Of a stretch of DNA of 64,000 nt, positions 5,000-53,642 are shown piece by piece (within the stretch, counting starts at the first letter, position 1; each line of letters begins with the position of its first letter). The DNA lies in NCBI GenBank assembly GCA_973895155.1, contig OZ316899.1, forward strand, positions 767,573 through 831,572, written 5' to 3'. The stretch is from Marsupella aquatica (lineage: Eukaryota; Plantae; Marchantiophyta). The position numbers and the translations under genes were made by a program. The notes below the pieces were generated by a model. It saw only the letters and a list, made by a program, of their open reading frames with translations, ran no database searches and had not been told where the DNA came from.

Positions 5000-5185
5000 C
5001 TTGCTTGTATCTCATGACCCCATGAAGGATTTGTCCAATATATGTGTGTAAAATGTTAGTAGTAGAAGGATTAGCAGCGTCCCATGCCGCTAAGCCGCGG
5101 AACCGGCCTCACCAAGAGCGAAACCTGTGGGAATCGGCTTGTGCAAGGGGGTTATTGGGTTTAGGGAGCCATGGGACGCACCACA
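5000..5185 (+). repeat. 3'-terminal fragment of the ORF-bearing giant-LTR family (ends ...GACGCACCACA)
   Basis: Matches 17338-17525 and 7244-7422. Confidence 0.85.
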
Positions 5186-7422
5186 CCCCTTCATCCCCAT
5201 GCTTCCTAGAGTAGTTTGAGGGGACCCCAACCAGCAGAGCAGCCCCAAGTCTCCCCCACCAGATGTCGCTCCCCCGAGATTCGACGGGGTAAAATAGACG
5301 GCACAGGAGTTGCAGGAGCAACTCAGGGAACAAGAGGAGGCAACCCTGGCCAAGGAGAAGGATTTACCTGGGGGAGAATGGCTAGAGGACATCCGACGGC
5401 TTGCAGAAAAATAAAGCAGCCCTCCACCCATGTTAGAAGAGATCCGAAAGGCGGCTTGGGAACAAAGGCCGCGGTGGGTGATGCCGATGACTACTACTCA
5501 CTTCGCATATGCGCAAGACAAAGCCATGGAGTACGGGGAGATGTGTGGGGAACTTGCGCTCAACATCTTTGGGGAGGAGTTGGAGCAAGGACCTTTTTTT
5601 CCAGAGAGATATGTTGGAAAAATGCCGATTGGAAGAAGCAGTGGCTTTGGAAAGAAGAAAGAAGAACGAGATCATCCGACGGCTTAGAGAGAAGTAAGTC
5701 GAGGTAGAGGACCTGAAGGCGGCCAAGAAAGCCCAAGATGAGCTGCAGATTAAGTGGCATGAGCTAAACATCATGTAGGGGCAGCTGGATACCGCTCAGT
5801 CTGATAATCAGATTATGAAGGATAAACTGACTCGGACCCAAGGGGAGTTGGCCGATGCGGTCAAGGAAAGGGAGAAGTGGAAGCAAGAGCTGAGGGACGC
5901 AGAGGAGGCCCACATAGCAACCAACAATTGGGCCATGGCGGAGACCCAGAGGAGGGAGAGGGCGTTGAAGGGGGATCTCGAGTATATCCGTGGAGCCCTT
6001 GAACAGAAGGAGGCCGAGTTAGGGAAATCTTATCAAGGGATTATTGTGCTGCAGCAGGAGCTTGCATCCCTGACGGCCAACTTCAAGGCCGACCTGCATG
6101 AGAAAGACGACCAACTTGATCAGACTTATGCCAAGATGAACTAGATGGAGTCTGAGGTCGTGACAGAGCTCGACAAGGAGGTGAGAGCAACCTAGGAGGA
6201 GAGGGCTACCTTAAAGAAGGAAGGAGGAAGCCAGAAGGAATTGGAGGAAGCCCAAAAGGAGTTGGAGGAGGCGCAGAAGGACCTGGACAAAATGCAGGAG
6301 GAGTTTGAAGAAAGCACAAGGAAGATGGAGAACTTACAGCGGCGGGCCGATAACCAAACGAAGTGGCTGAAGAAACAAGCCGCAGTATTTAAGTGCTTGG
6401 TTTCATCAGTTCCAACTCCAAGTGGGGCAACCAAGTTGCCAGGGGTAGTACTGGCCGAAGGACAAGCCGCGACACTCGCACCGGTGCTGGAAGTAAGTGG
6501 CAAGGGGAAGGGACCAGCTGCCAAAACAGGGAAGAAGAAGAAGCAAAAACCTTCTGGGTCAGGGAGTAACACGGCTTCTCAAGCCGTAGTGACCATGGAG
6601 GAAAACCCAGCACCAACCTCAGGCAGGGTCACGGCAGAGGATACAACTATCCTAGAAGGCGGGGATAGCAAAGTTGAGGCCAGGACAGTCAGTGATGAAG
6701 CCGGGGTACCGGATCCACCACTAGAGCATGCAGGGGAGGCCGTAGCCATATTAGAGGCTGTGGCCAATGCTGAGGCTGAAGCCGAGGGTGGACGTAGTCA
6801 GGCCAATGGAGAGTTGACTTGGTCTGGGGCAGGTAATCTGTCAGAATGCGGACCTAGGGCAGTGGCTGTGGAGGAAGCATTGGGGGCGTCCATTGAGGAT
6901 CAGACACCGCTACCATGATGGTGATGGAGGGCCGATCCTTTTAAGGAGGGCGGAAGTGGAGGGAGGAGGCGTGAGTGGGCAGGGCGGGCTCAAATCTCCA
7001 AGTTTAGAATTAGGATCAGGACCAAGAGGCTATTTGTGTGTCGCATTAACTTGTTTGAAGATTGCCCACATCAACCAAGAGAAGGGAGTAAGCAAGGTAG
7101 TAAGAGTTGGATGTGTTGAGCTGAGAGAGGTCTTAGCGGCTTATCCAAGCCAGTTGGGGATCATTCCGGCGGCGGAATCCAAACATACTTAAAGGAAGAC
7201 CACGAGAGGAAGAGAAGGGAAGGCATAGAATAGGCCGGCTACGTATCTCATGACCCGATGAAGGATCTGTCCAGTATATGTGTGTAAAATGTTAGTAGTA
7301 GAAGGATTAGCAGCGTCCCATGCCGCTAAGCCGCGGAACCGGCCTCACCAAGAGCGAAACCTGCAGGAATCGGCTTGTGCAGAGGGGTTTCTTGGGTTTA
7401 GGGAGCCGTGGGACGCACCACA
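5186..7422 (+). repeat. Tandem unit A: 3' part of the giant-LTR element (second half of ORF plus 3' end), with ~400-bp internal deletion
   Basis: Colinear with ~14870-17525. Deletion at ~7029 relative to 9442-9839. Ends GCACCACA. Confidence 0.85.
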
Positions 7423-10183
7423 CCACTTCATCCCCACGCTTCCTAGAGTAGTTCGAGGGGACCCCAACCAGCAGAGCAGCCCCAAGTCTCCCCCACCAGA
7501 TGTTGCTCCCCCGAGATTTGACAGGATAAAACAGACGGCACAGGAGTTGTAGGAGCGACTCAGGGACAAGAGGAGGCAACCCTGGCCAAGGAGAAGGATT
7601 TACCTGGGGGAGAATGACCAGAGGACATCCGACAGCTTGCAAAAAAACAAAGCAGCCCTCCACCCACGTTAGAAGAGATCCAAAAGGCGGCTTGGGAACA
7701 AAGGCCACGGTGGGTGATGCTGTTGACTACTACTCACTCCACATATGCGCAAGACAGAGCCATGGAGTACGGGGAGATGTGTGGGGAACTTGCGCTCAAC
7801 ATCTTCGGGGAGTTGGAGCAAGGACCTTTTTTCCAGAGGGAGATGTTGGAAAAAAGCCGATTGGAGGAAACGGTGACTTTGGAGAGGATGAAGAAGGACG
7901 AGGTCATCCATCAGCTTAGGGAGAAGGAAGCCGTGGCAGAAAACCTGAAGGCGGCCAAGAAAGCCCAAGATGAGCTGCAGATTAAGAGGCATGAGCTCAA
8001 CATCATGCAAGGGCAATTGGATATTGCTCAATCTGATAACCAGATTATCAAGGATAAACTGACTCGGACCCAAGGGGAGTTGGCCAACGCGGTCAAGGAA
8101 AAGGAGAAACAACTTTTTATTATACTACCCCCCAAACTGGTAGTTATTAGGATACTGCCCCCAAAACTAAAATATTTAGTATACTGCCCCCAAACCGTAT
8201 CCCATCACTTTTAACCCGAGTACTTGACCACTGTTGTGTTCCGATTTGGGGGCAGTATACTAAATATTTTAGTTTTGGGGATACGGTTTGGGGGGTAGTT
8301 TAGTAAAAAGTTGAAAGGAGAAATGGAAGCGGGAGCTAAAGGACGCAAAGGAGGCCCACATAGCAACCAACAATCGGGCCATGGCGGAAACATAGAGGAA
8401 GGAGAGGGCGCTGAAGGGGGAGCTCGAGGATCTCCGCAAAGCCCTTGAGCAGAAGGAGGCCGAGTTAGGGAAATCCTATCAAGGGATTATTGTGCTACAG
8501 CAAGAGCTTGCATCCCTGACGGCCAGCTTCAAGGCCGACTTGCGTGAGAAGGATGATATGCTTGATCAGACTTACGCCAAGATGCATGAACCAGATGGAG
8601 TCTGAGGTCGTCCGAGAGCTCGACAAGGAGCTGAGAGCAACCCAAGAAGAGAGGGCTGCCTTACAGAAGGAATTGGAGGAAACACAAGGAGCTAGAGAAG
8701 GTGCACGAGGACCAAGATGAAACGCGGGAGGAGTTGGAGGAAAGCACGCGGAAGCTGGAGAACTTACAATTGCGGGCCGACAACCAAACGGAGCGGCTGA
8801 AGAAACAAGCCGCAGTGTTTAAGTGCTTGGCCTCATCAGTTCAATCTCCAATTGTGGCAACAAGGTTGCCAAGGGTATTACTGGCCGAGGGACAAACCGC
8901 GGCACTCGCACCGGTGCCGGAGGTAAGTGGCAAGGGGAAGGGACCAGCTGCCAAACAAGGGAAGAAGAAGAAGCGGAAACCTTCTGGGTCAGGGAGCAAC
9001 GTGGCTTCTCAGGTCACCATGACCAATGAGGAGAACACAGCACCGGCCTCAGGCAAGGTCACGGCAGAGGATTCGACTATCCTAGAAGGCGGGGATGGCA
9101 AGGCCGAGGCCGGGACGATCATTGATGAAGCCGTGGTAGCGGATCTATCACTAGAGCAGGCTGGGGAGGCCGTAGCCAAAGCTAAGGTTGAAGCCGAGGG
9201 TGGACCTGGTCAGGCCGCAAGAGAGTTGACTTGGTCTGGGGCAGGTAATCTATTAGAACATGGACCTACTGCAGTGGCTGCGGAGGAAGCATTGGGGGCG
9301 TCCATTGAGGATCAGCCACCGCTACCATGACGGTGGTGGAGGGCTTCTCCTTTTAGGGAGGGCAAACGTGGAGGGAGGAGGCAATTGTGGGTAGGGCGGG
9401 TGCAAATCTCCAAGTTTAGAATTAGGATCAGGACCAAGAGGTGGCCCTGAAACTTCGATTAGTGGGATTGTGGATCCACTGGTAAAAGCAACACTTGTGC
9501 TCTTGCCTCACTGTACATAGGTAGATTACAGTTAGGATAGATTAGGCTTACGCTACAAGGAATTAGGCAGATCCACTGCCAGGATAAGTACCTGGGCAGC
9601 GGGGAGTTGAGGGCCTTCTTCTTTAGCAAGTTTTTAGTGCACCAACAGGGTTGGGATCAAGTAGTAAAAGAAGCTCTTGGTTAGTTATACATTGACCCTT
9701 GTGTATATTCATGTTTCCTCATGCCTAAGAGTTGAATAGAGTTGGCCTCACGGCTTAGTTCGCAGATCTTGTGTATGAGAAGTATTGTTTGTATGGCAAG
9801 TGCATGGTATATATAACTCAGTTAGAAGGAGTCATTTTGCTATTTGTGTGTCATATTAACTTGTTTGAAGATTTCCCACATCAACCAAGAGGGAAGGGAA
9901 GTAAGCACGGTAGTAAGAGTTGGATGTGTCGAGCTGAGAGAGGTCTTAGCGTCTAACCCAAGCCAATTGGGGATCATTCCGGCGGCAGAATCCAAACATA
10001 CCTAAAGGGAGTCCAGGAGAGGAAGAGAAGGGAAGGCATAGAATAGGCCTGCTACTTATCTCATGACCCGATGAAGGATCTATCCAGTATATGTGTGTAG
10101 AATGTTAGTAGAAGAGAATTAGCAGCGTCCCATACCGATAAGCCACGGAACCGGCCTCGCCGAGAGCGAAACCTACGGGAATC
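7423..10183 (+). repeat. Tandem unit B: same 3' part of the giant-LTR element, carries a MITE, truncated just before the terminus
   Basis: Same start junction as unit A (CC[C/A]CTTCATCCCC). Colinear with unit A and 14870-17470. Confidence 0.85.
8110..8313. mobile_element. 204-bp fold-back MITE, Mutator-like
   Basis: TIRs CAACTTTTTATTATACTACCCCCCAAA / TTTGGGGGGTAGTTTAGTAAAAAGTTG, perfect 36-bp internal inverted repeat, 10-bp TSD AAAGGAGAAA (8100-8109, 8314-8323). Absent from the sister copies. Confidence 0.9.
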
Positions 10184-10186
10184 AAA

Positions 10187-12686
10187 TTTTATCCAATATC
10201 TCCCTATGGATAAAAGGCCCTATCTCCAACTCTTTCCCAAAGATGTTGAGAACAAGTAACCCGCACATCTTCCCGTACTCCAAGGCTCTGCAGCGTGCAG
10301 AGCCTTGGAGTGGTTAGGAGATGCTGGCATCTCCCAACATGGCCTTTGTTCCCACGCCGCCTTTCAAACCTTGTCAAACGTGGGCTGGGGCCCGGCTTGG
10401 TCCTCTGCAAGTTGCCAAATGTCCTCCGGCCATCCTCCGCCTGGAAAATCCTTCTCCCTGGCCAGGGTTGCCCTCTCCAGATCTCTGAGTTGCTCTTGCA
10501 ACTCCTGGTCAGCCTATTTTCTCCCATTGTAATTCGGAGGAGGGACGTCTGGTGGGGGAGACTCCAAACTCCTCTGCTATTTTGGGTCCCCACGCACCAC
10601 TCTTGAAAGTGTGGGGATGAAGCAGCCACGGGTCCACACCCCTAGTACCGAACAATCCGACCCATAGCCAAAGTCATCCTCATTGTATTCCTCCACACCC
10701 TCCCTTCTGGCCTAGAGTACTAGTGCCTGCGGATCCTCTCTTGGACTAGCTGAAAACGCGGCATCCTACCGGAAATTGTGCATGTGTGCTGGTCTCTCCT
10801 CGGGCTCCCACACCCGCCTTTCCCTCTCCTTGTCATGATTGGGAACCCTAAGCCCTTGTCCCTTGGGTTCCGGACTTGAGGCTCCCACGTACATCCGCAC
10901 CCCCGGCTTGTTTTTTGGCCTCCTTCTCTCCGTGGCCCCTGCAAAGGGATCTGATCTGGTGGGTCTTGCGGTGTCTCCCTCCCCAACAATGCCCTGTACC
11001 AGTGCCTCTACTGCCATTGTTGGCTTCTCCTTTTGTAGAATCTGCAAGAGGCTCTGCATAGCTGGTTGTTGCATTGGCATGGGTTCCGGCGTCGGCCTAA
11101 AGATCTACACTATTGTGGGGCTGTCGGGCGGTTTGGGCTTCCTTGCTGCCGGCCTTGGCTCCCACTCCTTTTCTGGCTCCCTTGCCTGTAGGGGGAGTAT
11201 TGATGCAAAGGTCTGGCTTCGGGCATACTGGCACAATAACGACATGTGATAACCAAGCCGGGACACGCTCCCCTAGCCTATCATCTGTTGTTCCTCCTTC
11301 AAGATCTTCTTAAGTTGGGTGAGGAGGTACCCATTGTAGTCTTGGCTTGGGTCTGGCCTCTCTGCCAAGTAAACCTATGCCTTGCCAATCTCCAGCCTTT
11401 CCAGGTTGCAATGCATTGTCACCCGCAAGAAATCAATGATTTCTCCAATGTGCGGGTTGATGCAGGTGTTTCAAAAGAAACCTTTCTTCGTTGGTGGCCC
11501 GGGGAACGATCTAAACTCCTTGTCCGATAAGTTCTTTCGGGTGTCTACCTTGGTCTTGTTGCCCATCGGCAAGCCAAATACTTTGGCAATCACCTTGGGA
11601 GTGAGATATAATTCCCTCCCGTAGATCTTGGTTGCATTTGACTCGTGGTCCCATGATCCCACGAATTCCAACAAGTCTGATTCCGACACCTCTAGCTTCA
11701 GCCACGGTAATCTAACAAAGGCCTCCAAGCCCAATCCGGCCATGAAGCCTTGGTACTTTCTGGAGTGCATGGCTGTAAAACATGTATCCTCCTCCCATGC
11801 AAAATGTAACTGCACTGCCGGTGGTATCACCGGCCGCATTGACTGGGTCAACTTCTTGTTCCTCGGCTTTCTCTTGCCTCTGTCTCCCTTGCTTGATTGG
11901 CTTTCTAGATGCCGCCAACCTCGTTCTCTTGGCCAAGGTGGTTTCTTCGTTGTAGGTCATCTTCCTCTTCATTTTGGCCGCTCCTGACAACTCTCCTAGC
12001 ACTATTGCTTTTGTCCACGCCTCTGTGCAACCCTTCAGGTCCCAATGTTTGTTGTTGCAGTGGTTGATGGCCTCTCGGATGCCAACAATTCTATTTTCTT
12101 GAAATAGAAGATTGTCAAGCTGATCGGCAATAGGCATCCACAGGAATGCAGCCTTGATGAGCTCTTCTCCTAGAAAGGCAGACTTCTGCAATTCCCACGG
12201 CCGAGAAAGCTCCTATCATTCTCGGGCTGCTCTCTACTCCTCGTCCTTGTATGTTCCAATATACTCAGTTGCCCGTTCAAACAGGCATCCCCAGAAGTGT
12301 GCAGCTTGATTGACGTTGCTCATTCCCACCTTGTGCCGATGCTTGGTATCTGCTTTCGCCCTCAGTGTTCACCTCAGCAACTGACAATCATTGGCTTCTC
12401 CTTGCGAGTTGCTTGATCAATGGTTGTGAATGAGTCGTCACCCTTGGTGAACCTCCCTTACCCCACTCCGGCCTACCATTGCCTGACTTGGTCATTGATT
12501 ACTTGCAACCCTAATCGTGCCCCTTAGTTGTTGTTGCACCTATTACTCTCGACCTTAGCTCGGGTTCCACAAATACCCTTAATTCTTTATATTTTCTTGT
12601 TTTTCCTCCTTATACTAAGGGTTTTAGTGTATATCACTCGGCTTTACTATTTTACAAGGCCTAGTGATTCTTGGCTAGGCATCACA
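10187..12686 (-). mobile_element. Inverted, 3'-truncated, diverged copy of the giant-LTR element (5' 2.5 kb)
   Basis: Reverse complement starts TGTGATGCCTAGCCAAGAATCACTA like 12890. Encodes homologous peptides (GLEAFVRLPWLK...VIAKVFGLPMGNKTKVDTRK). Confidence 0.9.
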
Positions 12687-12889
12687 AGATGTTATCACTC
12701 TGAAATAATTGGGTATCAGCCTTGCTACTTCCTTCCAACTTCAATTGGAAGGCCTCTGCTACCACCTTCTTGTTTAATTGGAACTCCATGTCATAGATAT
12801 AGGTTAGATTTTTATTAGCAACCCAATTGCCTACAAACTCCATTAACTCACGATCGAGTATCTCCTCATCAAGCCATGGTAAGCGCATG
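12687..12889 (-). pseudogene. Fragment of an older, diverged giant-LTR family ORF (host of the flanking insertions)
   Basis: MRLPWLDEEILDRELMEFVGNW...VVAEAFQL is homologous to VRLPWLKPEVPNSDLLEFVGSW...VIAEVFGL. Joins ...KNSGLEG at 17526 once the insertion and TSD are removed (1-bp frameshift). Confidence 0.8.
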
Positions 12890-12985
12890 TGTGATGCCTA
12901 GCCAGGAATCACTAAGCCCGGTTTACATGGTAAAGCAGGAGTGTACCCTGGAAACACCTTAGTATAGGACCAAAAACAAGGAAAA

Positions 12986-12991
12986 TATAAA
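12986..12991 (+). promoter_or_regulatory. Candidate TATA box upstream of the LTR-embedded ORF
   Basis: AAAATATAAA-N-AATTAAGGG is conserved between this copy and the diverged inverted copy, ~280 bp upstream of ATG 13268. Confidence 0.4.
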
Positions 12992-13267
12992 CAATTAAGG
13001 GTGACTATGGAACCCGGGCCGAGGCCGGAAGTAAGGACGCCGGGGGAGAGAACACGATTAGGGTTAGGGCGCGCTAAGCGTCGGTGGCTAGGGGTGACCA
13101 ACGGGAGGGGAGACCAGAGGAGGAGAGGGGTAAGGACCGCTCGCGAGGAATAGTGGCTCATTTGCAAGAACAAACTGGGCAGATGACTACGGGAGGCCAA
13201 ATGCTGTCAGCTGCTTAGACAAGCACTCGGGGTGGGAACAGATACCAACGATCGACTCAAGGAGGGT

Positions 13268-16200
13268 ATGAGCAACGTCAATCAAGCGGCACATTTTTGG
13301 GGATGCCTGTTTGAATGGGCAGGTGAGTACATCAGGACTTACGAGGACGAAGAATTGGAGAGAGTAGCTCGAGAACGGCAGGAGCTCGCTCGGCTCTGGG
13401 AACTGCAGAAGATGGCTTTCTTAGGAGGAGAACTTATCAAGGCCGAGTTCTTGTGGACTCCTACTGCCAATCAGCTCAACGACCTTCTATTTTGCAAAAA
13501 CAAAATCGTCGGCATCCGGGAAGCCATAAATCGCTGCAACAACCTACGCTGGCAGTTGAAGGGTAACACGGAGGGGTGGAAAAAGGCAACCTTGCTAGGA
13601 GAAACATCCACGGCAGCCGAGATGAAGAGGAAAGGAAACAACAATGAAGAGGCCACACCGGCAAAAAGAACGAGGTCGGCGGCACCTAGGAAGCCAGCAG
13701 AGCAGCAGAGCAGGACAAGGGGAGAAGCCGATGAGGAAGAGGTTGATCCCATCAATGCCATTCCAACAAACGATGACACCTGGAAAGGCTGGGCGGCGAC
13801 CCTACCGGAGGAAGTGCAATTACACTTTGCACGGGAGGAGGATGCATGCTTTACGGCCATGCAGACCAAGAAGTACCAAGGCTTCATGGCCGGATCCGGC
13901 TTGGAAGCCTTCGTAAGATTACCATGGCTGAAGCCGGAGGTGCCGAACTCAGACTTATTAGAATTTGTGGGATCATGGGAACCCGAGACCAATTCCACGA
14001 GGGTGTATGGGAAGGATTTCTATCTCACTCCCCGAGTGATTGCTGAGGTGTTTGGCTTGCCGATGGGTAATAAGACCAAGGTTGATACCAGGAAGACCTT
14101 ACCTGACAAGGAGTTCCGGTTGTTCCCAGGACCATCAACAAAGAATGGCTTCTTCCAGAATATCTGCACCAACCTGCACATCGGAGAGATGATCAATTTC
14201 TTGCAAGTGACCATGCACTGTAACTTGCCGACGGCAGAGATCGGCAAGGCTCAGGTCTACCTGGCAGAAAGGCTAGACCCAAGCCGGGATTACAACGGGT
14301 ACCTCCTCAACCAACTGAAGAAGATCTTGAAGGAGGAATAGCAAGTGATCGGCGTGGGAAGCGTGTCCCGACTTGGCTATCACATGCCGCTGTTGTGCCG
14401 GTATGCCAGAAGTCAAATCTTTGCCCCAGTACTTCCCCTATCGGCAAGGGCACCGGAGGAGGTCCCAGAGCAGAGGCCGGCACCAGAGAAGCCCAACCAG
14501 CCCGACAGTCCAACGATCAAGCAGGTGTTTAGGCCAAGGAAAGAAGACTTGCCGATGCAGCAACCAGGCATGCAAAATCTGTTGAAATTGCTGGAGAAGG
14601 AAAAGAGAATGGTTCCGGCAACGGCAACGGACGCTGCCCCAGAAGTCGACCTAAGCCGACTCAAAAGGGAAGACTCCTTTACCTGAACCAAGGAGAGATT
14701 GAGGCCGGAACACAAGCCGGGAGTGCGAATGTACGTGGGAGCCTCAAGCCCCAAATCAGAGGCAGAGGAGCCAGGAGTCCAAGTAGTGGAGGAGGCGGTG
14801 GAGGACTACAGCAATGATAACTTCGGCTATGGGTCGGATCATCATGTTCCAGGAGTAAGGACCTGTGGCCGATTTATCCCCACACTTCCAAGAGTAGTTC
14901 GAGGGGACCCCACCCAGCAGAGTAACCCCGAGTCTCCCCCACCAGAGGTTGCTCCCCCGAGCTTTGACGGCATAAAGCAGACGGCACAAGAATTTCAGGA
15001 GCGACTTAGGGAGGAAGAGAGAGCAGCCCTGGCTAGGGAGAAGGATTTACCAGGAGGAGATTGGCCGGAGGACATCAGGCGGCTTGCCAAAAAAAGAAGC
15101 AACCCTCTTGCCACCGTAGAAGAAATCCGCAAGACGGCTTGGGAGCAGAGGCCGCGGTGGTTGATGCCGATGACTTCTAGTTACTCCACCTATGCTAAGG
15201 ATAGAGCCATGGAGTACGGGGAGATGTGTGGGGACCTGGCGCTCAGCATCTTTGGGGAGGAGTTGGAGCAGGGACCCTTTTTCCAGAGGGAGATGTTGGA
15301 AAAGCACCGATTAGAAGAAGCGATGGCTTTGGAGAGAAGCAAGAAGGACGAGGTCATCCGACGGCTTAGAGAGAAGGAAGCCAAGGTGGAAGACCTGCAG
15401 GTGGCCAAGGAAGCCCAAGATGAGTTGTGGATTAAGCGGCATGAGCTAAACATCATGCAGGGGCAGTTGGATACCGCTCAGTCTGACAATCAGATTATCA
15501 AAGATAAACTGACTCGGACCCAAGGAGAGTTGGCCGGCGCAGTCAAGGAGAGAGAGAAATGGAAGCGGGAGCTAAGGGATGCAGAGGAAGCCCACTTAGC
15601 AACCAACAATTGAGCCATGGCGGAGACTCAAAGAAGGGAGAGGGCGTTGAAAGGAGAGCTCAAAGATATCCGCGGAGCCCTTGAGCAGAAGGAAGCAGAG
15701 TTAGGGAAATCCTATCAAGGGATTATTGCGTTGAGCAGGAGCTTGCGTCCCTGACGGCCAGCTTCAAGGCCAACTTGCATGAAAAGGACGACCAGCTCGA
15801 CCGGACTTATGCCAAGATGAATAAGATGGAGTCTGTGGTCGTCGCAGAGCTCGACAAGGAGCTAAGAGCAACCCAGGAGGAGAGGGCTACCTTGAAAAAA
15901 GAATTGGAGGAAGCCAATAAGGACCTGGAGGAGGCGCGCAAGGACTTGGACGAGACCCAGGAGGACTTGGAGGAAATCACAAGGAAGATGGAGAACCTAC
16001 AGCGGCGGGCCGACAACCAAACAGAGCGGCTGAAGACCCAAGCCGCAGTATTTAAATGCTGGCTTCATCAGGTCCAACTCCAATTGGGGGAACCCAGTTA
16101 CCAGGGGTAGTATTGGCCGAAGGACAAGCTGTAACACTCACCCCGGTGCCGGAGGTAAGTGGCAAGGGGAAGGAACCGGCTGTCGAAATAGGGAAGAAGA

Positions 16201-16580
16201 AGAAGCGGAAACCTTCTAGGTCTGGGAGTTATACGGCTTCTCAAGCCGTTGTGACCGAGAAGATAACCCCAGCACCAACCTCCGGCATCGGCACGGCGGT
16301 GGATCCACCAGTCCTAGGAAGTGGAGATGGCAAGGCCGAGGCCGGGAGAACCAGTAATGTTGCCGAGGTACCGGATCCTCCACTAGAACATACCGGGGAG
16401 GCCGTAGCCGTAGCAGAGGCCGTGACCGATGCTGAGACCGAGGCCGATGGTGGACCCAGTCAGGCCGATGAAGAGTTGACTTGGTCAGGGGCAGGTAATC
16501 TATCAGAGGACGGACCAACGACAGTGGCTGCGGAGGAAGCGTTGGGGGCGTCCATTGAGGACCAGCCACCGGTGTCGTGA
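13268..16580 (+). pseudogene. ~1,100-codon accessory protein: N-terminal helical domain, basic NLS-like segment, Athila-ORF1/Transposase_32/PMD-like domain, long coiled coil, acidic tail
   Basis: ORFs 13232-14341, 14345-14686 and 14699-15613 are in one frame, separated by single stops that are sense codons in sister copies. Two 1-bp deletions (~15735, ~16060) shift to 15775-16110 and 16056-16580. The domain family assignment is by motif resemblance only. Confidence 0.75.
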
Positions 16581-16839
16581 CGGTGTAAGGGCGCCGTCCC
16601 TTTTAGGGAGGGCGGGCGTGGAGGTAGGAGGCGTGAGTGGGCAGGGCGGGCGCTGATCTCCAAGTTTAGACTTAGGATCAGGATCAGGAGACGGCCCTGA
16701 CACTTAGATTAGTGGGATTTTGGATCCACGGGTGTGGACGACACTTGTGCTCCTGCCTCGCTGTACTTAGGTAGATTACAGTTAGGTAGATTATAGTAGA
16801 TAGATTAGGCTTACGCTGCAAGGAATCAGGCGGATCCAC

Positions 16840-16864
16840 AACCCTAAACCCTAAACCCTAAACC
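16840..16864. repeat. Short interstitial telomeric repeat (CCCTAAA)3 inserted in one copy
   Basis: ATCCAC[AACCCTAAACCCTAAACCCTAAA]CCAGGATA versus ATCCAC[TG]CCAGGATA at 9571-9586. Confidence 0.9.
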
Positions 16865-17525
16865 AGGATAAGTACCTGGGCTGCGGGGAGTTCAGGGCCT
16901 CTTCTTTAGCAAGTTTCTAGTTGCACCAGCAGGGCTGGGATCAAGTAGTAAGAGAAGCTCTCGGTTAGTTATACAGTGACCCTTGTGTATATTCATGTTT
17001 CCTCATACTTAAGAACTGAATAGAGTTGGCCTCACGGCCTAGTTCGCAGAGCTTGTGTATGAGATGTACTGTTTGTATGGCAAGTGCATGGTATAACTCA
17101 GTCAGAAGGAGTCATTTTGCTATTTGTGTGTCGCATTAACTTGTGTGAAGAGTGCCCACATCAACTAATAGAGGAATAGAAGTAAGCAGGGGAGTGAGAG
17201 TTGGATGTGTCGAGCTGAGAGAGGTCTTAGCGGCTTAACCAAGCCAATTGGGGATCATTCTGGCGGCGGAATCCAAACATACCTAATGGAAGACCAGGAG
17301 AGGAATACAAGGGAGGGACTAGAATAGGCCGACTAAGTATCTCATGACCCGATGAAGGATCTATCCAGTATATGTGTGTAAAATGTTAATAGAAGTAGTT
17401 GAAGGAGAGTTAGCAACGTCCCATGCCGCTAAACTGCGAAAACGGCCTCGCCAAGGACGAAACCTGCGGGAATCGACTTGAGCAAGGGGGTTTCTTGGGT
17501 TTGGGGAGGCAGGGGACGCACCACA

Positions 17526-20137
17526 GCATGAACCCTCCAATCCTGAGTTTTTCATAAGACCTGAAAACTTATATGACTGGATGGTTGTAATAGCCTCCAC
17601 ATTCTCTATGGGTCTTACCAGCTTCAATCTAGCCACTACTGGTACAATATCCATCCACCCCTTCCAGTTCCAATACTTGGGTGGTGACGTGATTGGAATT
17701 GCCTCGTAATTGGCATCATCATCTATTGCCTCTTGGTTTGATCCATGTCCCGAACCAACCTTTGTCACTCTCATCTCTCTCCCATGTCCACGACCTCCTG
17801 GATTGGTGTTTCTTCCTTTTTTTGTTGGTGGCTCTGCATTAGTTACGCCATTTACTACCCGTTTCTTGACTTTGGCATCCTTCAGAGCTGCCTTTCCTGC
17901 CATCTCTACCTAGGCTGCAATTTGCTTCTCAGGTCTCCAAGAGTCCTCTCCCCCTAAGATCTTCTCTGGCGCCCACTCTTCCGTAGTCCCAGGTAAATTC
18001 CAATGCTCTAATGAAGTCGCGGAACTTGACTACCTTAACACTTAGCTCCGGCGTTGCTGACTCTGACGCCGAGCTCTTATGGTCCAGGCCCAAATAGGCC
18101 ATCTGGGGAGGACTTAGCATGGGGAGACTAGTGGGCACTGAGACGTGGCACTAGCAAAGGCAAGGAGCCAAGCTGGTGACACACACTAAAGACTTAGGCA
18201 AGTTGAGAGCTTTTCGGGTCAAGGGGAAAGGGGCTGGACTCAAGGTTGACCGTCCGGGCCCCTGGACGGACTTTGAGTTCTGAGGGCTTAAGTGTGAGCT
18301 CCTCTTGGGCCCAAGGCCAATGGAGTTGACGCCATGGGCAACGGACGCTTGGGGCGTGAGTTAGGGCCCGATCTGGGTTTGGCCGATCGGGGACCCCGAG
18401 CGGTGATGAGACCTGAGGTCCTAGGCATGAGCACTGGGTCGGCCCAATCACAATGGGCTAAGGCACTCCGCTTGCGGATGCTTAACGAGAAAGTTATGGG
18501 CATTGTCAGTTGGTGGCACGCGCGATAGGATCCGGGTTGGAGGCCAAATATTTAGGGACCAAAGTTGGTCCGGGGGTGGCAGGTCTCCAGAAGCATATAT
18601 GAGGGGAGTGGTGTCTCCCTTGGGGCCAAGGGCGAGCCGAAGTCGTGAGCCGCGGTGGTCGCGACATTAAGGGAAACCTCCAAACGGAAACGACGATATC
18701 TTCCCAACATGAAGTCCGTTGGAGGACTTCTTGGGTGCATTAGAAAGCTCTTGAGGAGGGCTACGTCCTCCTGATCTTAGCTGGGTCTAGGGGTGCCATG
18801 GGTTCTTGAGGTTTGCGGGTGTTAGCTCACCCGCTTGCCAAATCCTGCCGAACAGCAACCAAGCAGCGTTCAGTATCCCAAGGGAGCTTGCGTTGGGGAG
18901 GCAAGGCCAAGTAGGCGTGGAGGTTGAGTTCCAAGGGTGATCGGCCTCTAGACCATCAGTGGGGCGAGAACCGGGAGTTGGTTGCTAAAGTCGGGGCCGT
19001 TCTGGTCCGGGCGTGTTTGGAACAAGCTTTAGGACAAGCTACGCTATTTGGGCCATGAGCATGTCCTGGGGTCAGGGCGGTCAATTGGTGATGGATAGGT
19101 ATGAGGGGGAACCCGGGCCGCACCCAAGGAAGGGACTGTTCTGGATGAACAGTAGGTGTGGGTTCTGGTTCCGGCTTATGGCATCGGGAGGACCTATCGC
19201 TGACCTATTTACCAACGTCTGTTGAGCTTGAGTTAGGATGCTAGACTTGGCGAGTTCTAGATCCTGAAGGGTTACTTACCAAGGTGCTTGGTTGCTTGTG
19301 CAGATGGTGAGGACCGTTGAGTAGCGGTCGTGTTGGAGGGCAAGTGCGGCTTTGTATGGGAGGGGCCGCTGGTAGTGCAAGGGGCACTAGGTTGCTTGCT
19401 CAAGGTATTCCGTGGAGGCGTTTGGGCACCAGGGGCACTTAGGCATGAGTGCTGGGATTGGTGAGGGCGTTGGGTGGCAAGGTCCATCACTATTGAGCAC
19501 CAATAGACTACCTGTCGAATGGACCGTAGATTCCCATCCTCGAAACAAAGAGCGTTCAAATCCTCCACATTGGATTCCCACTTGAATTTTGCATCAATGT
19601 AATCTCCAATGATAAACACAATTGACGCTGCATCCCACAATTGTGCAATGTCTACCCGTTCTCGCTCAGCTCTCTCAGGATCAGTTTCCTCATATGTCTT
19701 TACTAGCTTACGTGCATAGTTGAGCAATGTTTGCCATAAATGCCTGGCCTGATTAACCTTAGCCGTCGATACTTAGATGAAGAAATGATAGACTAAACTC
19801 TAAACCCTACTGATGACAATCTGGAGAGCTCGCCCGACAAGTAATATTCTAGGGTGTGAAGAGAAGAATGAACAGTGTCTTTCCAATCTTCCCTCCTTAC
19901 CCCCTGCCGTAGATGAGAGAACAGTACATATAGTCCTGGGAATATTGTCGTTGTACTCTTGTATATACTCCATAGTAGCCGTTCATATCAGCAATTAGCA
20001 AGCTCCTTACTCTAAGCCTTATTCTAAACTAGTTTCTATACTATTTGTTTTAAAAACACATAACCTATGCTAATACTGTACACAAGCTGGGTTTTTACCC
20101 ACTGATTTTATACACTGATCCCAATAAGGGCATCACA
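17526..20137 (-). mobile_element. Oldest, most diverged giant-LTR family copy (5' part; host), interrupted at 18012-19489
   Basis: 5' terminus TGTGATGCC at 20137. Peptides VNQARHLWQTLLNYARKLVKTYEE..., HWNLPGTTEEW...ILG and WKGWMDIVP...KFSGLMKNSGLEG align to the 13268 ORF. Confidence 0.75.
18012..19489 (-). mobile_element. Probable 1,478-bp solo LTR
   Basis: TG...CA ends (TGATG...CTTCA on the minus strand), 4-bp TSD CTAA/CTAT. Removing it restores the in-frame host peptide CSIEHWNLPG. GC-rich, no recognisable domain. Confidence 0.55.
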
Positions 20138-24203: not shown

Positions 24204-25053
24204 TGTCGTGCCGAAAGATTTCGGCTCATGAATGGCTTTTATAGGGGATGATGGGCGAGGACTCTCGGTTGGGTTGCGTGCATGCTGACTCGGAGGGGCT
24301 GCTTGGTTGGATGGATTGAGGTTTGGCAATTGGGTGACTCGTCGTCACCAGGTTTGGTGTTTGGGTGAGTCACCAGGCTTGGAGTTTGGATGAGCCTCGC
24401 TGCTGGCAACTGGCTCAGGCTGGATGGTTGGGTTTCCGATGCTACTTAAGACTTGAGCCTTGCCTCATTGAGGTTGGCGGTTGTCTATTGAGATCTGTTG
24501 AGTTGCGTTCTGTGAGTTTCGCTCCGTTGTGCGGAACTCGACTCTTGTGCGACGGTTTTGGAGTTCTGAGTGAGTTTTCAATCCAGGTGGGGAGTTTTTG
24601 ATCCAGACGGGGAATTTCTTGAGTCTGGAGTCTCGTTGATCCAGGCGGGGATTTCTCGAGTTTGGAGTCTTGTCGATCTAGGCGAGGATTTCTCGAGTTT
24701 GGAGCCTCGTTGGTCCAGGCCCGAGTTCCGTGTGAGCTGTTTTAGACTAGTGGAGTAGCTAGTCGAGTTTTTGGTTTTGTGAGTTAAGGAAGATAGTTTT
24801 TCTGTCAGATTTTGAGTAGTTAGTCACTCGAGGAGTTCTACCCAACAAGTTAGAGGTAGCGGCCCGCCGTAGGGCCAGCTACTAGACTCTTGCGGGCAAG
24901 CTTACTCGAGGGCACCTATTGTAACCTTTGTGAGAAAAGTAAAAAATATAAAGGAGTGAGAGTTCACTCCGAAAAGTGCTTGTCACCTGTCCCGATCGCA
25001 GCCAGAAATGCGTAGTTTGCCAGAGGAGCCCCTAACTTTAAGTCCTCGCGACA
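24204..25053 (+). repeat. 5' LTR containing ~37-bp tandem subrepeats (GATCCAGGCGGGGATTTCTCGAGTTTGGAGTCTCGTT) at ~24579-24722
   Basis: Direct alignment with 28330-29179. Confidence 0.92.
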
Positions 25054-25094
25054 TTGGCAACCATACTGGGGATTCCTTGGGGCGATTGGATGAG

Positions 25095-41485: not shown

Positions 41486-42873
41486 TGTGGTATGGGTGTC
41501 CCTGCAATTTTTTCTGGAAACTTGTTTATTTTTAGCATATCACAAGATTTACTTACACTTTAGACACCTTCCGGCCAACATTTACTTGTTCTGGACACTT
41601 ATAGAAATATTTGACATCTCCGGCTTTCCTGACGATTCCTAGTGTACTTTGCCCGACGCTGTGACCAGCGCCCGTTTCTTTTACTCAAGACGCTGCGGAA
41701 GCGTCCAACCTCCTCATGACGCTTTTGGCAGTGCCCGACCGCCACCAAGACTCTATGAGGATTTCGACCGACGCTGTGGAAAGCGTCAGCTTCAACACAC
41801 GACGCTGTGAGCAGCGTCCACCCTAGTATTGACGCTGTGAGCAGTGTGAGCAGCGTCCGTTGGTTTTACTTAAGACGCTTCTAGCAGCGTCCAGATTCTC
41901 CCGACGCTTCTAGCAGCGTCCGCTCAACACTTAGTTTTTGAAGTAGATTACTAGTAAAGTAGTATTCTACCACCCTTGTTGAAGTACTTATGCTGTGCTT
42001 CTCCCTTGTTTAGTTTTAAGCTTGGAAAGGCACGACTGTTCTTACCTCCTCCATTTTAGGATTCCAGCACTTATAAGACAGAGTAGAATGCTCATTTGAA
42101 GTAGAGAGAAATAGAGTTAATACTGTATTCAGAATTGAGTCTTCTGAATAGTTTTCTCCTCCTTCCATTGTAACAAGGCATGCTGTGAGTGTTTTGTATG
42201 GAAGTAAAGCTATATTGATTGAAGTTAAGATTGAATTCAAGAGATTCCTGTGGTGATTGAATTCAGTTGCAGATTTCTGAAACTCGTATTGAATTCACTG
42301 CTAGGCTTGCTTGCAGAGTCGGGATTCGCTAGCCAATTCAAGAATAGTTAATGATAAATGAGAAGTAAATTCTGATTCTCAGAGTAGTTAGTACTGTTGC
42401 TTTGATTCTGGAATATGGTTTAGAGTTTGACTGAATTGCGTATCGCTGATGTCAAACCATGTTGACGGCATTTTAAATCATATCATTCATTTGCAATCAG
42501 AAAGCTTCTGCTTCATCAGATTGAGAATTCCATTATCATTAACCTTTGTGTTTTGAAGAGTGAGATGGATGAATTATGAGATAGATTTCATGTCTATACT
42601 GAGCCCAAATCCTTTCTGAAGGAGTGGCAGTAGCTTGTAGTCTCTAAATCCTTACTCATTTCTTCTCTAATTCATAAATCAGAAGTTCAGTTACTTTGTT
42701 GTTTGTTTATTCGATTTTTTTTATTGAGAAGTGAAGTCAACATAGAGCTCAAGACTCTAAATCACTCGGAGTGATAAAAGTTATACAATTCATTCTGAAA
42801 TCTGTTCTTAAAGGGATCGAAACCCTGGTTTTAGGTGAGGAGAGTCACTTTTGATACTTAGCACTATACGACA
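41486..42873 (+). repeat. 5' LTR
   Basis: TGTGGTAT...ATACGACA, duplicated at 53643-55030. Confidence 0.97.
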
Positions 42874-42879
42874 TCTTTT

Positions 42880-42897
42880 TGGCGCCGCTGCCGGGGA
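42880..42897 (+). promoter_or_regulatory. Primer-binding site complementary to the tRNA-Asp 3' end (Athila type)
   Basis: TGGCGCCGCTGCCGGGGA, one mismatch to the canonical TGGCGCCGTTGCCGGGGA. Confidence 0.85.
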
Positions 42898-44091
42898 ACG
42901 AATTTAAGATTGAATTGACGTACAGGCAGTGTATGCCAGAAGGAGCTAGACGGGAGAGGAATTCACGTTCTACTATAATTGTGAAGATGCGTCATCACTC
43001 CAGTTAAAAAGATGAAGAGCTTCCATTTCGAGGTGATGCCGTACTCTATCCAAAGCGCCCCGGAAGCTCTCTTAAGAGTATTGGAAAAATTTGTGGTGCC
43101 AAACTTAAGAGAAGAAACCGCCCTCCCACCAGAAAAGGCCTCACAGAGAGGAGCTGTTGCTCGTCAAGTTGCTTTGGAGATAGTTGAAGACACCAAAGAC
43201 ACTTTGAGTGACAAGTGAAGTTATTCTAACGTTGCTCGGGACGTATGATTTGTAAAATTGTCCAACCATCCTGGTTCGTGTGACCGATGCCACCTATCCG
43301 ATCTTTGGGAACATTAAGAATTAGGAATTTGAGGAATCGTTATGTTAATTCTTGGGTTCTGAGCCTGAGAGGGAGGAATGGCATACATTGGTTAACTATC
43401 ACCTGGTGGGAAGATGAAAGTTTGCATTTAGTAATATTAAGGCTGAATGGTAGGATCACACAGGAGTGATATTTAGTCATTTCCATTCGGGAGTTAGCGG
43501 AAAGAATCATGCACCAGGAATTGCGTAGAAGATTAGGAAGGAGTTAGACGTCTGATTAGTAGGATGGCCTAGTGTAGCGTACCATGTGGTAAAGAAATTT
43601 CAGGGTGAAGGAAGTCGGAGATTATGGGGAACGCCCGGTTCCAGTAATCGCCACCGTAAAGGAGATAAGGAAGGACGCCGCGAAGAGCGTCCAATGCGAT
43701 TCGTCCCAGAAGATTCCGCAAGTCAGGACGCTTCGAGTAGCGTCCGATCCCAGTGGACGCTGTGAGCAGCGTCCGGTGGAATCTGTGACGAACCAACGTG
43801 CGCGACGCTTCTGGTGTGCCTTTCCGCGTCTCAACCTGAAGGACGCACCAGAGAAAACGAGGTTTTAGAATCTCGGCTGGTCACTGAAGGGAAGTATTAG
43901 CTACGGGATAGCAAGGGGGAGGAATCATGCAAGGGATGTTGAACGACGCTACGGGAAGTCACTTTGAGGAAGCAGGTTCATATCTCCCGGAGTGGGGTGA
44001 TAACGTCGCACCTAAATGGTGACTCCTTGCATAAAGACTCCTGAGGAGCGGGTCTGGTGTCTCAAAATCACCCGTGCTTGGAGAATGAGGG

Positions 44092-47000
44092 ATGTCTGAG
44101 GGAGATCCACCGAATAAAAGAAAACCTACCAAGACCTCCAGTAATTCGGATGCTGCAAAATTAGTAGTGACCCCTCGCACATTGTTACCCGAATTCCAGT
44201 CACCAGGAGCACCTGCACCGGGTAGTGTGTGGAAACAAGTGGGATCTATTCAAGAGGCAAGTGGCTCTTTGGAAAGGCCCACGTCGACCCGACCCCTGTT
44301 TGTAAATCTTCGTTCAGGTCCAAAACTTATTGGTTCTCAAAAGACCAAGCTCCGCCAGCAGACAGTACGTTCGGTGAACCAAATTGACTCTGGTGTGGAT
44401 AGTACCACTGAGAGGGCCTTATCTCATACCGAAGGAAGAAATTTGGGTTTGCCCGAGAATACAGTTGCAGAATCGCTGGCCCAAGATAATTCTGTCGATC
44501 TTTCACAATTGGATAATCCAGAACCACTGAGTGAAGCCGGTGGTTCGTCTTCTAGTGAGACAAGCAGCAGTTCAGGCTTGGGCAGCCCAAACCCATTTGC
44601 TACCCGATCAGCTCTTCCTTTCGTTACCCTCCTAGCTCCAACCACGATGGCTCGAAATAATGTGAGGTACGACCGGTTCTTCGGTACTTCCAAGGAGGAT
44701 GCAGAGGTGTATTTGAAAGAATTTGAAGCTGCAGCTGCATCCAATGGACAGAGTCAAGACGCTGAAAAAGCCAATCTGTTTGGTGGTCTAATGAAAAAGG
44801 GTGCTCAGAAATGGTATGACCGTTTTCCGGACAAGCAGGATTGGGGGAAATTGAAGGCTGCTTTCTTGGCCAAATATAAAGAAGAAGGAGCAGCTGCGCG
44901 TGCCTTTGCCCGAATCTCACATCTGCACATGAAGAAACATGGGTCTGTGAGGAAATATGCCGACAAATTATTGGATTTGGTAGATCAATATAATCCAGCT
45001 ACCTCGAAATCTACTATCAAGGACTGGTTTATTAACGGTTTACCCTCCAGGATTGCTCGTTACGTGAGACGAGAAGGTGGCACCACTTTGGAAGAAGTAC
45101 AAGAGGCAGCCCAGAAGTACGTAGACTCGGAGATTTCAGAGAGAAAACGAGTTAAGAAGGACCTGAAGAAAGACAAAAGAAAGAAGAAGAAAACGTCCAG
45201 GTCTAAATCTGACTCGGAGACGGAATCAAGTGGAAGTAGCACTAGTGAGGAGGACGAGAGTACAAATTCGAGCACTAGTGATAGTTCAAGCTCAAGTTCC
45301 GACTCAGAATCCGTTGCTCCTAAAAAGAAGAAATCCTCTGTAAAAGGGAATAATAAAGTTCCCAACCAGAAGAAGATGGATCGCATGATGGAAGAACTCT
45401 CTGGCCAATTGTCCAAGTTGAATGTCAATATCGCCGCGGTAAAACCAGTACGAAGGTTGCCTGCTCCCATGAGAATGAACGTATGGTGCACCCGATGCAG
45501 TCAGCAGGGCCATTACCCGAACGAGTGCCCCACATTATGAACCCCGGTGAATTATGTAGATGGTCAAGAAGAGGCTGAGGAGTATGAGTACGATCCCACG
45601 TATACCGTCCAAACAGCACCCCCTGGACAGTATTTCCCACCACCTCCTGCTTCCAGACCGACTTGGGGACCACCTAAGCCCACTTTCAATAAACCAACGT
45701 CAAGACCACCCATGGGACCCCCGGGAGGATACCCACCACGAGGAATGCCGCGTCAAAAAGGGGCTTGTTGGAATTGTGGCCAACCTGATCATTATTCACC
45801 CCAGTGCCCTTATCCCAAACAGGAGGTGGGGTATACACCTGTCTGTGGGAACTGTGGAAAAGAAGGACACTTACCGGTGGAATGCCCGAATCCGGCTAAG
45901 CCTAGGCTGATGGTTCGATTTGCTCAAGAGCCAGTTAAAGAAGCAAGTCGACCTGAAGCCAAGATTCGGATGGTTTATTCTGAAGAGATGGAGCAATGCA
46001 GCTTCATTCAACATATGGATGTAAATCGGGTGGAATTAAAGCCAGATTCACTTTTTCATCAACCAGTATCCGGGGTGGTGCCTGATGTCTTGGTAAGTCA
46101 TTTAGTGAAACCTGAAGTAGTTGGTATGCCGAATGATCGAGTTCAGAATCGGGATAAAGTTCTGACTAATATTTACGCAACTACTCGTTCGAAGAAAAAG
46201 GAGACCAAGAAGCACGAGCATCAGAAGGTCGCGAAAGCTCCCAAGGATGAAGGGCGCAAGCCATGTAAGGAAGGCCTCGACAAAGAAGACGACCCTGCTT
46301 ATGACCGATATGACCCAAAATACTTCTTGCCCGACATCTCTTTGGAAGTGAAAGACCATCTGGAAGAGCTAGTTAAGGAGCAAGTGCAATCTCCTAACCC
46401 ACCAGTAGTAGTCAAAGCTAAAGAGCCACTGAAAAATCCAGGTTATGATATTGTTGAAGATGTCAAGAATCATCCTGCACATATCACCATTGGGGAATTA
46501 TTACAGGACAATCCGGTTTATAGGCGACAGCTGAGGAGCCTCCTTGCAGGAAAACGGAGGAAGAAGAAGTTACCTTCGGTGGATGTGCTACGAACAGAGT
46601 GGGAGGACAAAGGACCGATGGAAATTGAGGTTCAAATCCAGGGGTGTGTCATTCGGAGAGTTCCTGTGGATGGAGGAGCCAGCGTTAATCTGATTACACA
46701 GTCAGCAGCATTTAATTTGGGTTTCACTAAGTTTGAGCCCACTCCCAAGATTTTGCGCATGGCGGATCAGTCTCGTGTGGTACCCATAGGGAAGCTGACC
46801 AGAGTAGAAACTTTGATTGCTGGTGTCCCTTTTCTGTTGGATTATGTGGTTATTAATCCGGAAATACCATCCAGCTTTCCTGTTTTGTTAGGCCGACCAT
46901 GGTTGTATAAGGCTCAAGTTCAGGTTAATTGGCAATCTCAAGAGCTTTCATTTGGGAAGCCTAAGGTGACTGTTAGTTGGGTTCCGGAACCACATTTTGG

Positions 47001-47145
47001 AGAAACACAAACAGATGATGGGTACACCTCGGATTTTTCGACCTCTTCGCTAGTCCTGCAGCCATTGGAATTTGAACTGGAGGAAGTTCGTTACTTGGAA
47101 GTTTATCTGTCTGATGCTCCCATAAAACCAACTAGGCCCTCCTGA
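44092..47145 (+). CDS. gag: Gag (retrotransposon gag domain, Ser-rich linker, three zinc knuckles) and aspartic protease; in-frame TGA at 45538-45540
   Basis: ORFs 44092-45540 and 45547-47145 share a frame. CTRCSQQGHYPNEC, CWNCGQPDHYSPQC, CGNCGKEGHLPVEC; VPVDGGASVN...VLLGRPWL. Confidence 0.9.
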
Positions 47146-50119: not shown

Positions 50120-50141
50120 AATTCCACCTGGGACAGGTTGC

Positions 50142-50157
50142 AATTTAAGTGGAGGGC
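50142..50157 (+). promoter_or_regulatory. Internal (upstream) polypurine tract, identical to the terminal PPT
   Basis: AATTTAAGTGGAGGGC, also at 53625-53640. Confidence 0.8.
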
Positions 50158-50502
50158 GGTAGTTATACTTAGTTAGAATTAGTGACCCTCCCTAGTAAGT
50201 ATTCGGCATATTTTTTTAATTTTTTTTAGTTACTTTCAGTTTTTACATTGGACGCTGTGAAAAGCGTCCATTGTAACTCGACGCTGGGGAAGCGTCCACT
50301 TAGTTTACAAAGGACGTTGTGCAGAGGTCCGCTTTTGTATTAGTTCAGTTGCATGAGACGCTGTGAGCCGATGACTAGGCATCTTGTACAATGGCGGATT
50401 GCGACAGCTCAACGGGACGCTGAGGAGTAAGCAGTCGCGCTTCGCCCTAGTTCACTATGGAACACGATTCTCACTGAGCTTACGGAGCTAACAAGTCACG
50501 CG

Positions 50503-53076: not shown

Positions 53077-53088
53077 AGGACACCATTT

Positions 53089-53565
53089 ATGAGAGATATC
53101 AAACGGTGTTGTCATTTATATGTATATAAGCCGTTACTTTTGCAGCATCCTGCAATTGTTTCCTTCTTTCTCCTTCGAATTGATATTTATCTGCTCATGT
53201 GGGACATCAAAGCTACTATGGATTGTTGGAATTCTTTACCCCGTGCTTTCCAACATTCCTTTGAAGGCAAGATCAAACTGGGAGGACATGCTATTCAACA
53301 CTTTGTTATTGATCCAGGCTCTCGAATTAATTTCCTCTCCCACAGACTGTGCCAGCAATTTGTTCATCAAGAAGTACAACCGATATCTGCTCAGATATCA
53401 ATCGATGGACGAATCATTAATCTTTGGGGAAGAGTTAAAGGAGTCCCAATACAGATCGGAGAAGAATTCCATGACCTCGATTTTTATATTCTGGATTCGG
53501 ATATCTCCCAACTCCCGTCAATGATTTTGAGCACTACTTGGATTATTAAGCCAGAATATTATTAA
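53089..53565 (+). CDS. Second, atypical retropepsin-like domain (D-P-G in place of D-[ST]-G)
   Basis: FVIDPGSRINFLS...GRVKGVPIQIG...LDFYILD...MILSTTWI follows the retroviral protease pattern. True start unknown. Confidence 0.6.
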   Translation: MRDIKRCCHLYVYKPLLLQHPAIVSFFLLRIDIYLLMWDIKATMDCWNSLPRAFQHSFEGKIKLGGHAIQHFVIDPGSRINFLSHRLCQQFVHQEVQPISAQISIDGRIINLWGRVKGVPIQIGEEFHDLDFYILDSDISQLPSMILSTTWIIKPEYY

Positions 53566-53624
53566 TGAAGAACATGTCACTCGCTTCTGATTCAATTCGG
53601 TCATGTCTTGTGGGGACACGGCGA

Positions 53625-53640
53625 AATTTAAGTGGAGGGC
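53625..53640 (+). promoter_or_regulatory. Terminal polypurine tract
   Basis: 2 bp upstream of the 3' LTR TG. Confidence 0.9.
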
Positions 53641-53642
53641 TA

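Follow-up and report, generated by a model that had tools for sequence, protein, structure and literature searches.

Within a window of 64,000 nt from the liverwort Marsupella aquatica (contig OZ316899.1, positions 767,573 to 831,572; the window is the whole stretch of DNA analysed) lies a unit of 4,636 nt, at 12890-17525, whose ends resemble those of a long terminal repeat (LTR) and whose interior is largely taken up by one broken but formerly selected gene. We argue below that this unit is probably a solo LTR that carries a gene of its own. Its features, including the candidate polypurine tract (PPT) and nuclear localisation signal (NLS), are as follows.

12885..12889, no strand: left target-site duplication, GCATG
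12890..12913, plus strand: left terminus, likely an integrase att end, with a sharp rise in contig depth
12986..12991, plus strand: TATA-like box, common to subfamily 2, putatively part of a promoter
13268..16580, plus strand: single broken reading frame of about 1,100 codons with three stops and two frameshifts
13268..13600, plus strand: N-terminal helical region of no known family, with homologues P0005, P0008 and P0009
13625..13675, plus strand: bipartite NLS-like basic motif KRK-x10-KRTR, kept in the translations of subfamily 2
13757..14431, plus strand: conserved globular core domain, dN/dS (ratio of nonsynonymous to synonymous substitution rates) 0.14, homologous to the accessory open reading frame (ORF) of a neighbouring gypsy element
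15305..16054, plus strand: long coiled-coil region of about 250 codons, dN/dS 0.15-0.22
16194..16211, plus strand: basic cluster KKKKRK in a low-complexity C-terminal tail (tail dN/dS 0.55-0.57)
16581..17525, plus strand: non-coding tail of 945 nt, an ordinary LTR size, with (AACCCTA)3.6 at 16840-16864
16601..16613, plus strand: purine tract 20 nt past the stop, kept in three of three covering copies, a weak candidate for a relic PPT
17526..17530, no strand: right target-site duplication, GCATG

The unit runs from gcatg|TGTGATGC at 12890 to GCACCACA|gcatg at 17525, and its ends are inverted at seven of eight bases. Two marks expected of a solo LTR are present, namely TG...CA termini with a short inverted repeat and a target-site duplication in the 4-6-bp range, here a perfect 5-bp GCATG pair. 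An exact 5-mer match at given ends arises by chance about once in 1,000, and duplications of 5 bp are described as usual for plant LTR elements (PMC11963269). The ends TGTGATGC and TGTGGTGC are also like those of paired LTRs in the window, TGTGGTAT, TGTCGTAT, TGTCGTGC and TGTCGCGA (elements 24204-29180 and 41486-55030). A Pfam scan detected no gag, protease, reverse transcriptase (RT), integrase or transposase in any of the five frame pieces of the unit; the ends, the perfect duplication and the absence of gag, pol and transposase that had been claimed in an earlier reading from the letters alone (hereafter the sequence-only reading) are all confirmed. The same holds for its claim of a shared start: TGTGATGCC is common to three subfamilies, at 12890 on the plus strand and at 12686 and 20137 on the minus strand. 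The left-terminal 24 nt are identical to subfamily 2 at 23 of 24 positions, against 8-20 of 24 in other segments of the 5' non-coding part. Self-blastn found no direct repeat pair within the unit, the best match between head and tail being 9 nt exact or 11 of 12; the unit is therefore not a short-LTR element, and a terminal-repeat retrotransposon in miniature or large retrotransposon derivative (TRIM/LARD) is ruled out. The unit matches no Rfam family.

Evidence for mobility comes from contig depth in four runs (X1-X4, at most four samples from two studies; X3 includes a flank with zero differences and may represent the source). Each of the four runs has contig coverage in all 28 bins overlapping the unit, and the two outer bins lie more than 100-fold lower. 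Over the first 24 nt of the left end depth amounts to 62,000-64,000 in X2, 9,000-9,600 in X3 and 23,500 in X4; it is at most 457 in bins at least 4 nt upstream of that end in these runs. Five different flanks of single-copy depth occur among the six contig rows listed for the left end, and in X2 and X4 the host repeat is represented by a diverged copy free of the insert. Contig depth was not taken as copy number, yet presence in hundreds of copies is its natural reading, and the data support the unit as a mobile, high-copy insertion of integrase type. A host gene is ruled out by the nesting of copies, their number and the target duplication. The terminal motif was absent from the metagenome and viral contigs searched, and scans for related loci returned zero loci.

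The gene can be compared with relatives from three subfamilies in the same window, of which the unit itself represents the first.

5007..10183, plus strand: head-to-tail 3' halves of subfamily 1, 81-91% nucleotide identity, with a minus-strand gag-protease abutting on the left (5006/5007)
10188..12686, minus strand: 5' half of a subfamily 2 copy, 71-74% nucleotide identity, inserted 203 nt from the unit
17526..20137, minus strand: subfamily 3 copy that hosts the unit, 35-42% amino acid identity, resuming at 12889-12687 within the same domain

From the ATG at 13268 to the stop at 16580 the frame spans 3,313 nt, or 71.5% of the unit, much as the sequence-only reading had put it (a repairable ORF over about 72%). 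The ATG is common to subfamily 2, and in-frame similarity begins about 27 codons earlier. Stops interrupt the frame at 14339, 14684 and 15611 and frameshifts near 15733 and 16059; the first frameshift is missing from most of the contig depth in four of four runs and the second in two of four. None of the three stops is common to the three aligned relatives, which have 10, 7 and 3 stops of their own. Selection was estimated by pairwise Nei-Gojobori counts over gap-free codons of well-aligned stretches, with shifted frames as controls. Between the unit and subfamily 2 dN/dS is 0.21 (95% interval 0.16-0.26; 646 codons), and the two tandem halves, themselves not independent of each other, give 0.28 (563 codons) and 0.29 (549 codons), whereas the shifted frames yield 0.88-1.58. 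The gene was therefore selected, and a chance ORF is ruled out by these ratios. A dN/dS comparison across copies had been proposed with the sequence-only reading, and values of 0.21-0.29 lie far under 1; its statement that the ORF is conserved at the protein level between subfamilies is borne out by the ratio for subfamily 2 and by the 35-42% amino acid identity with subfamily 3. Since every aligned copy has stops of its own, selection must have acted on a replicating lineage from which the copies in the window have since decayed: an intact gene was maintained in that lineage, and all window copies are decayed. The further suggestion that every solo LTR would be a working cassette acting in trans is not supported, as all four aligned copies (the unit and three relatives) have their own stops.

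The predicted protein combines several conserved regions. Over 13187-13600 dN/dS is 0.21, and the N-terminal region is 35% identical in subfamily 3. The motif KRK-x10-KRTR we take to be of the NLS pattern, and the two NLS-like motifs together with the coiled coil suggest a nuclear oligomer. A HMMER search against 1.84 billion representatives returned 17 matches at E <=0.001, from which P0014, a bacterial repeat protein, was removed as a chance match; among the 10 matches looked up, one bears a plant name, the liverwort Calypogeia fissa (E 8.8e-4), a faint pointer to a bryophyte host. Cluster member P0026 (787 aa) is built in the same order, a domain followed by a linker and a coiled-coil-like C-terminus. 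Word-based homologue searches, one of which spanned 1,072-3,060 aa only, gave nothing. On one frame piece Pfam reported generic coiled-coil families alone, under the cut-offs, and in the ESM Atlas both the unit and its best homologue fell near ATHILA ORF-1 (PF03078) and Transposase_32 (PF20167) clusters at 0.84-0.87, under the 0.9 mark. An ATHILA-ORF1/Transposase_32-like core domain is accordingly no more than a lead. Structure prediction gave a predicted local distance difference test score (pLDDT) of 37 from the single sequence and of 53 from a 16-sequence model, too weak for naming a fold; the latter model weakly predicts a helix-hairpin-helix in the core domain. The Foldseek comparison put forward with the sequence-only reading, run with this weak model, yielded no match in PDB or BFVD. 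The best VIA Z was 4.2 and involved a pair of helices, and a profile search of PDB sequences found no match either; none of these blanks rules anything out.

A homologue of the gene stands in the window itself, in a young gypsy element that contains a protease-like remnant (53077-53565) after its accessory ORF.

41486..55030, plus strand: full-length gypsy element, LTRs of 1,388 bp identical to each other, GGAAG duplication
50503-53076, plus strand: sense accessory ORF of 881 codons without a Pfam match, between the two PPTs

A core-domain profile built from 13 sequences, the neighbour's ORF excluded, aligned with this 881-codon ORF at 84% in hhalign (E 7.6e-6, 175 columns), and tblastn of the neighbour's accessory ORF against subfamily 2 gave E 5.9e-6. 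Homology searches thus support a relationship of the unit's gene to a gypsy accessory ORF located between pol and the 3' LTR. The sequence-only reading had described the protein as Athila-ORF1/PMD-like with a long coiled coil; the coiled coil stands and kinship to the neighbour's accessory ORF is added, while the family label, lacking a Pfam match, rests on weak leads. The neighbour's primer-binding site (PBS) is presumably of Athila type. Its PPT occurs twice with 16 of 16 positions identical (50142-50157 and 53625-53640; 0 of 300 simulations), once about 22 nt past the integrase stop and once 2 nt before the 3' LTR. From the upstream PPT it is 346 nt to the ATG of the accessory ORF and 4,873 nt to the end of the element; the corresponding distances in the unit are 378 and 4,636 nt, so that the layout of the unit matches the neighbour's stretch from upstream PPT to element end. 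An extra PPT has also been reported in Athila4 and Calypso, where its function is described as unclear (PMC2829016).

These observations can be joined in one account. The unit would be a solo LTR, the remnant of a gypsy retrotransposon of Athila/Tat type whose two LTRs of 4.6 kb recombined after the accessory gene had shifted into the U3 part of the LTR. Such a shift could have come about if plus-strand priming switched from the LTR-adjacent PPT to a second PPT just past pol, whereby spacer, accessory ORF and old LTR would be copied into both ends, with the neighbouring element as a picture of the starting state. It is an established retroviral mechanism that U3 starts where the PPT primes the transferred plus strand (PMC12789967), and priming from an upstream tract would therefore fuse the spacer, the ORF and the old LTR to a single giant LTR. 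DNA primed upstream normally loses out in competition (PMC12789967), so that the switch would need the proximal tract to be lost. Transcription of the gene would start at a TATA promoter of its own in the left end of the unit, the product may be a nuclear coiled-coil oligomer, two gene copies would be present per full element, and fixed solo copies would decay. We consider it probable that the unit is a solo LTR in one orientation or the other; that it derives from an Athila/Tat-type gypsy family which took an accessory gene into its LTR we regard as evenly balanced.

Several results weigh against this account. None of six termini in the window, two of which belong to one event, and none of the five distinct contig flanks among those listed adjoins a PBS or shared PPT. 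The unit shows no nucleotide similarity to the neighbour's LTR or spacer, and GC content at third codon positions (GC3) is 0.62 in the unit against 0.39 in the neighbour; the neighbour is therefore an analogue from a different family and not the parent. A purine tract like that at 16601..16613 was matched in 810 of 1,000 simulations over the whole unit and in 157 of 5,000 in place, the pattern first used for it was picked after the tract had been seen, and no TG follows it. Pfam profiles of ATHILA ORF-1, Transposase_32 and PMD match neither the unit nor the 16 plant-type homologues at E up to 1, and the weak model gives no fold match of the domain to PMD/VANC. Finally, only one gag adjoins a copy, and its direction is opposite to that of the ORF. 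As for the termini, the shortest contig pieces listed measure 30-33 nt, so junctions that branch a few bases outside the end were probably missed, and a high solo-to-intact ratio would make a lack of termini adjoining PBS or PPT expected; a second solo-like unit does lie in the same host copy (18004-19499). The LTR reading first put forward from the letters is supported in part: what stands is a high-copy integrase-type insertion made up mostly of one selected gene akin to gypsy accessory ORFs, while LTR status is something that we infer.

The orientation of the gag raises the possibility that the unit is a solo LTR of an element running the other way, its gene lying antisense to gag-pol as in Retand/Grande ORFs and taken up into the LTR, with a promoter of its own at the PBS-side end. 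A deletion starting from a minus-oriented 5' LTR should leave what is seen at 5006-3363, a minus-strand gag-protease abutting the 180 nt at the right-hand end of a copy, and antisense ORFs of Retand are described with Transposase_28 or SMC-like domains and their own promoters (PMC7264820). However, an unrelated insertion followed by deletion yields the same junction, GC3 of that gag is 0.46 against 0.62 in the unit, the closest testable homologue is a sense ORF, and Retand elements with such ORFs are described from angiosperms only (PMC11963269), which makes this orientation unlikely.

Termini flanked throughout by unrelated DNA would also fit a one-gene DNA cassette that is no LTR at all, with att-like ends and mobilised by an integrase of retroviral type or a Ginger-like transposase acting in trans; the promoter-like head, the terminator-like tail and the perfect duplication around a single unit agree with it. 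Ginger elements have long terminal inverted repeats of tens to hundreds of nt and an integrase-like transposase, whereas the unit offers an imperfect inverted repeat of just 8 nt and neither integrase nor transposase. An RNA running from the TATA box to the tail would presumably need a second copy for the ends to be rebuilt, and the kin of the gene is a gypsy accessory ORF. Such a cassette seems to us quite improbable.

The non-coding parts bear on a further alternative. The tail is LTR-sized, is preceded by the purine tract, and is deeper in its bins than the ORF in X2 and X4, which would suit master elements with ordinary LTRs of about 0.9 kb (the tail) and an internal ORF, the unit being a single-ended by-product that starts at an internal PPT and stops where the element ends. 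Yet the left end is the best-kept sequence and is common to three subfamilies down to about 35% protein identity, pointing to its use in a replicating lineage; identity with tandem copy B is 88% in the tail and 81% in the 3' part of the ORF, a difference that can account for the depth, and contig depth is no copy number. We regard a by-product of this kind as very unlikely. At the head, the TATA-like box that the sequence-only reading held to be conserved between copies is found in two of three subfamilies and is not evident in the third; a telomere-like TAGGGTT follows it at 13059.

Further observations concern the surroundings of the unit. Nesting among the three subfamilies occurs at least three times over 15 kb (5007-20137); the subfamily 3 host copy, a diverged relative, is broken by the unit within the same domain, and an X1 contig has a further unit start inserted near 13869. 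Repeated nesting may reflect self-targeted integration. The N-terminal region of the subfamily 3 copy is split by a 1,496-bp GC-rich TG...CA unit (18004-19499) with short inverted ends and a CCAA duplication, probably another solo LTR, and tandem copy B contains an AT-rich insertion of about 205 bp (8110-8314) with a long internal inverted repeat, similar to a miniature inverted-repeat transposable element. At 24204-29180 lies a 5-kb LTR element with 850-bp LTRs (97% identical), a gag-like ORF and traces of protease and integrase zinc domain; Pfam found no RT in it, and it is of non-autonomous type. An open 881-codon RT frame of a long interspersed nuclear element (55-2700) adjoins the minus-strand gag-protease remnant, the intact gypsy element interrupts CACTA transposase fragments (39431-41532; Transposase_21, DUF4218), and 60241-61185 holds an apparently degraded minus-strand fragment of a BBR/BPC GAGA-binding domain.

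Of known systems, the Athila/Tat (OTA) Ty3/gypsy elements are among the closest to the solo LTR proposed here. Their 3' extra ORFs include Athila ORF-1 (PF03078), PMD (PF10536) and Transposase_28 (PF04195) (PMC6317226, PMC7264820), in agreement with the accessory ORFs that the sequence-only reading had placed in Athila/Tat internal regions. They share with the unit the 5-bp duplication, TG...CA ends, multi-kb LTRs and a related accessory ORF, the intact element of the window being such a case; LTRs of this group reach about 5-6.5 kb (PMC6317226, PMC6431247), and the giant LTRs of Ogre (1.9-6.5 kb) are similar in size to the unit (PMC6431247). As described in the main texts of surveys, however, extra ORFs of plant elements belong to the internal region (PMC7264820, PMC6317226, PMC11963269), for Athila/Tat ahead of gag or in the stretch that separates pol from the 3' LTR and for Ogre internally as well (PMC6431247), whereas the gene of the unit fills the presumed LTR. 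In the open-access literature, covered by phrase, title or abstract and through these main texts, we found no ORF inside the LTR of a plant retrotransposon, which agrees with the earlier remark that a gene of such size is not standard there.

The sag ORF and the LTR of mouse mammary tumour virus (MMTV) are far smaller than those of the unit. A gene-bearing LTR is nevertheless known from this mouse retrovirus, in which sag is a whole accessory ORF within U3 (PMC12789967) and hence duplicated, as proposed here; unlike the unit, MMTV is an animal retrovirus, and sag encodes an unrelated protein, a membrane superantigen. For function, the VANC and PMD-C proteins may serve as a model, as they too combine a globular domain with a coiled coil. 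VANC and MAIN share a fold, and for the domains of VANC and Athila oligomerisation by way of coiled coils has been predicted (PMC13547354); the PMD-C proteins MAIN and MAIL1 are reported to counter Polycomb at telobox-bearing promoters (bioRxiv 10.1101/2024.09.27.615353), and the telomere-like motifs at 13059 and 16840-16864 may be compared with the telobox. VANC differs in being encoded by Mutator-like DNA transposons, and the comparisons made gave no sequence or fold match between the unit and these proteins. By this analogy the oligomer could help its own family to stay transcribed or to reach chromatin, which we regard as somewhat doubtful.

Taken as a whole, we tentatively propose, as a possibility that we would rate rather below even, that a plant gypsy lineage, of an age at which its subfamilies are down to about 35% protein identity, brought a nuclear accessory gene of 1,100 codons into its LTR through a primer switch, giving two copies per element and young solo LTRs that would be self-contained cassettes of promoter, gene and terminator, supplying a trans-acting chromatin factor of anti-silencing type even after the loss of gag-pol. 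A retrotransposon is taken to be disarmed once solo-LTR formation deletes its genes; if the proposal is true, a gene borne in the LTR outlasts this process, and each full element has it twice. Giant LTRs would thereby have an uncomplicated origin, and the second PPT found in Athila-type elements (PMC2829016) would gain a role. Annotation tools that skip LTRs in ORF calling would overlook such genes, and the selected, self-contained gene is a convenient test object for the function of gypsy accessory ORFs.

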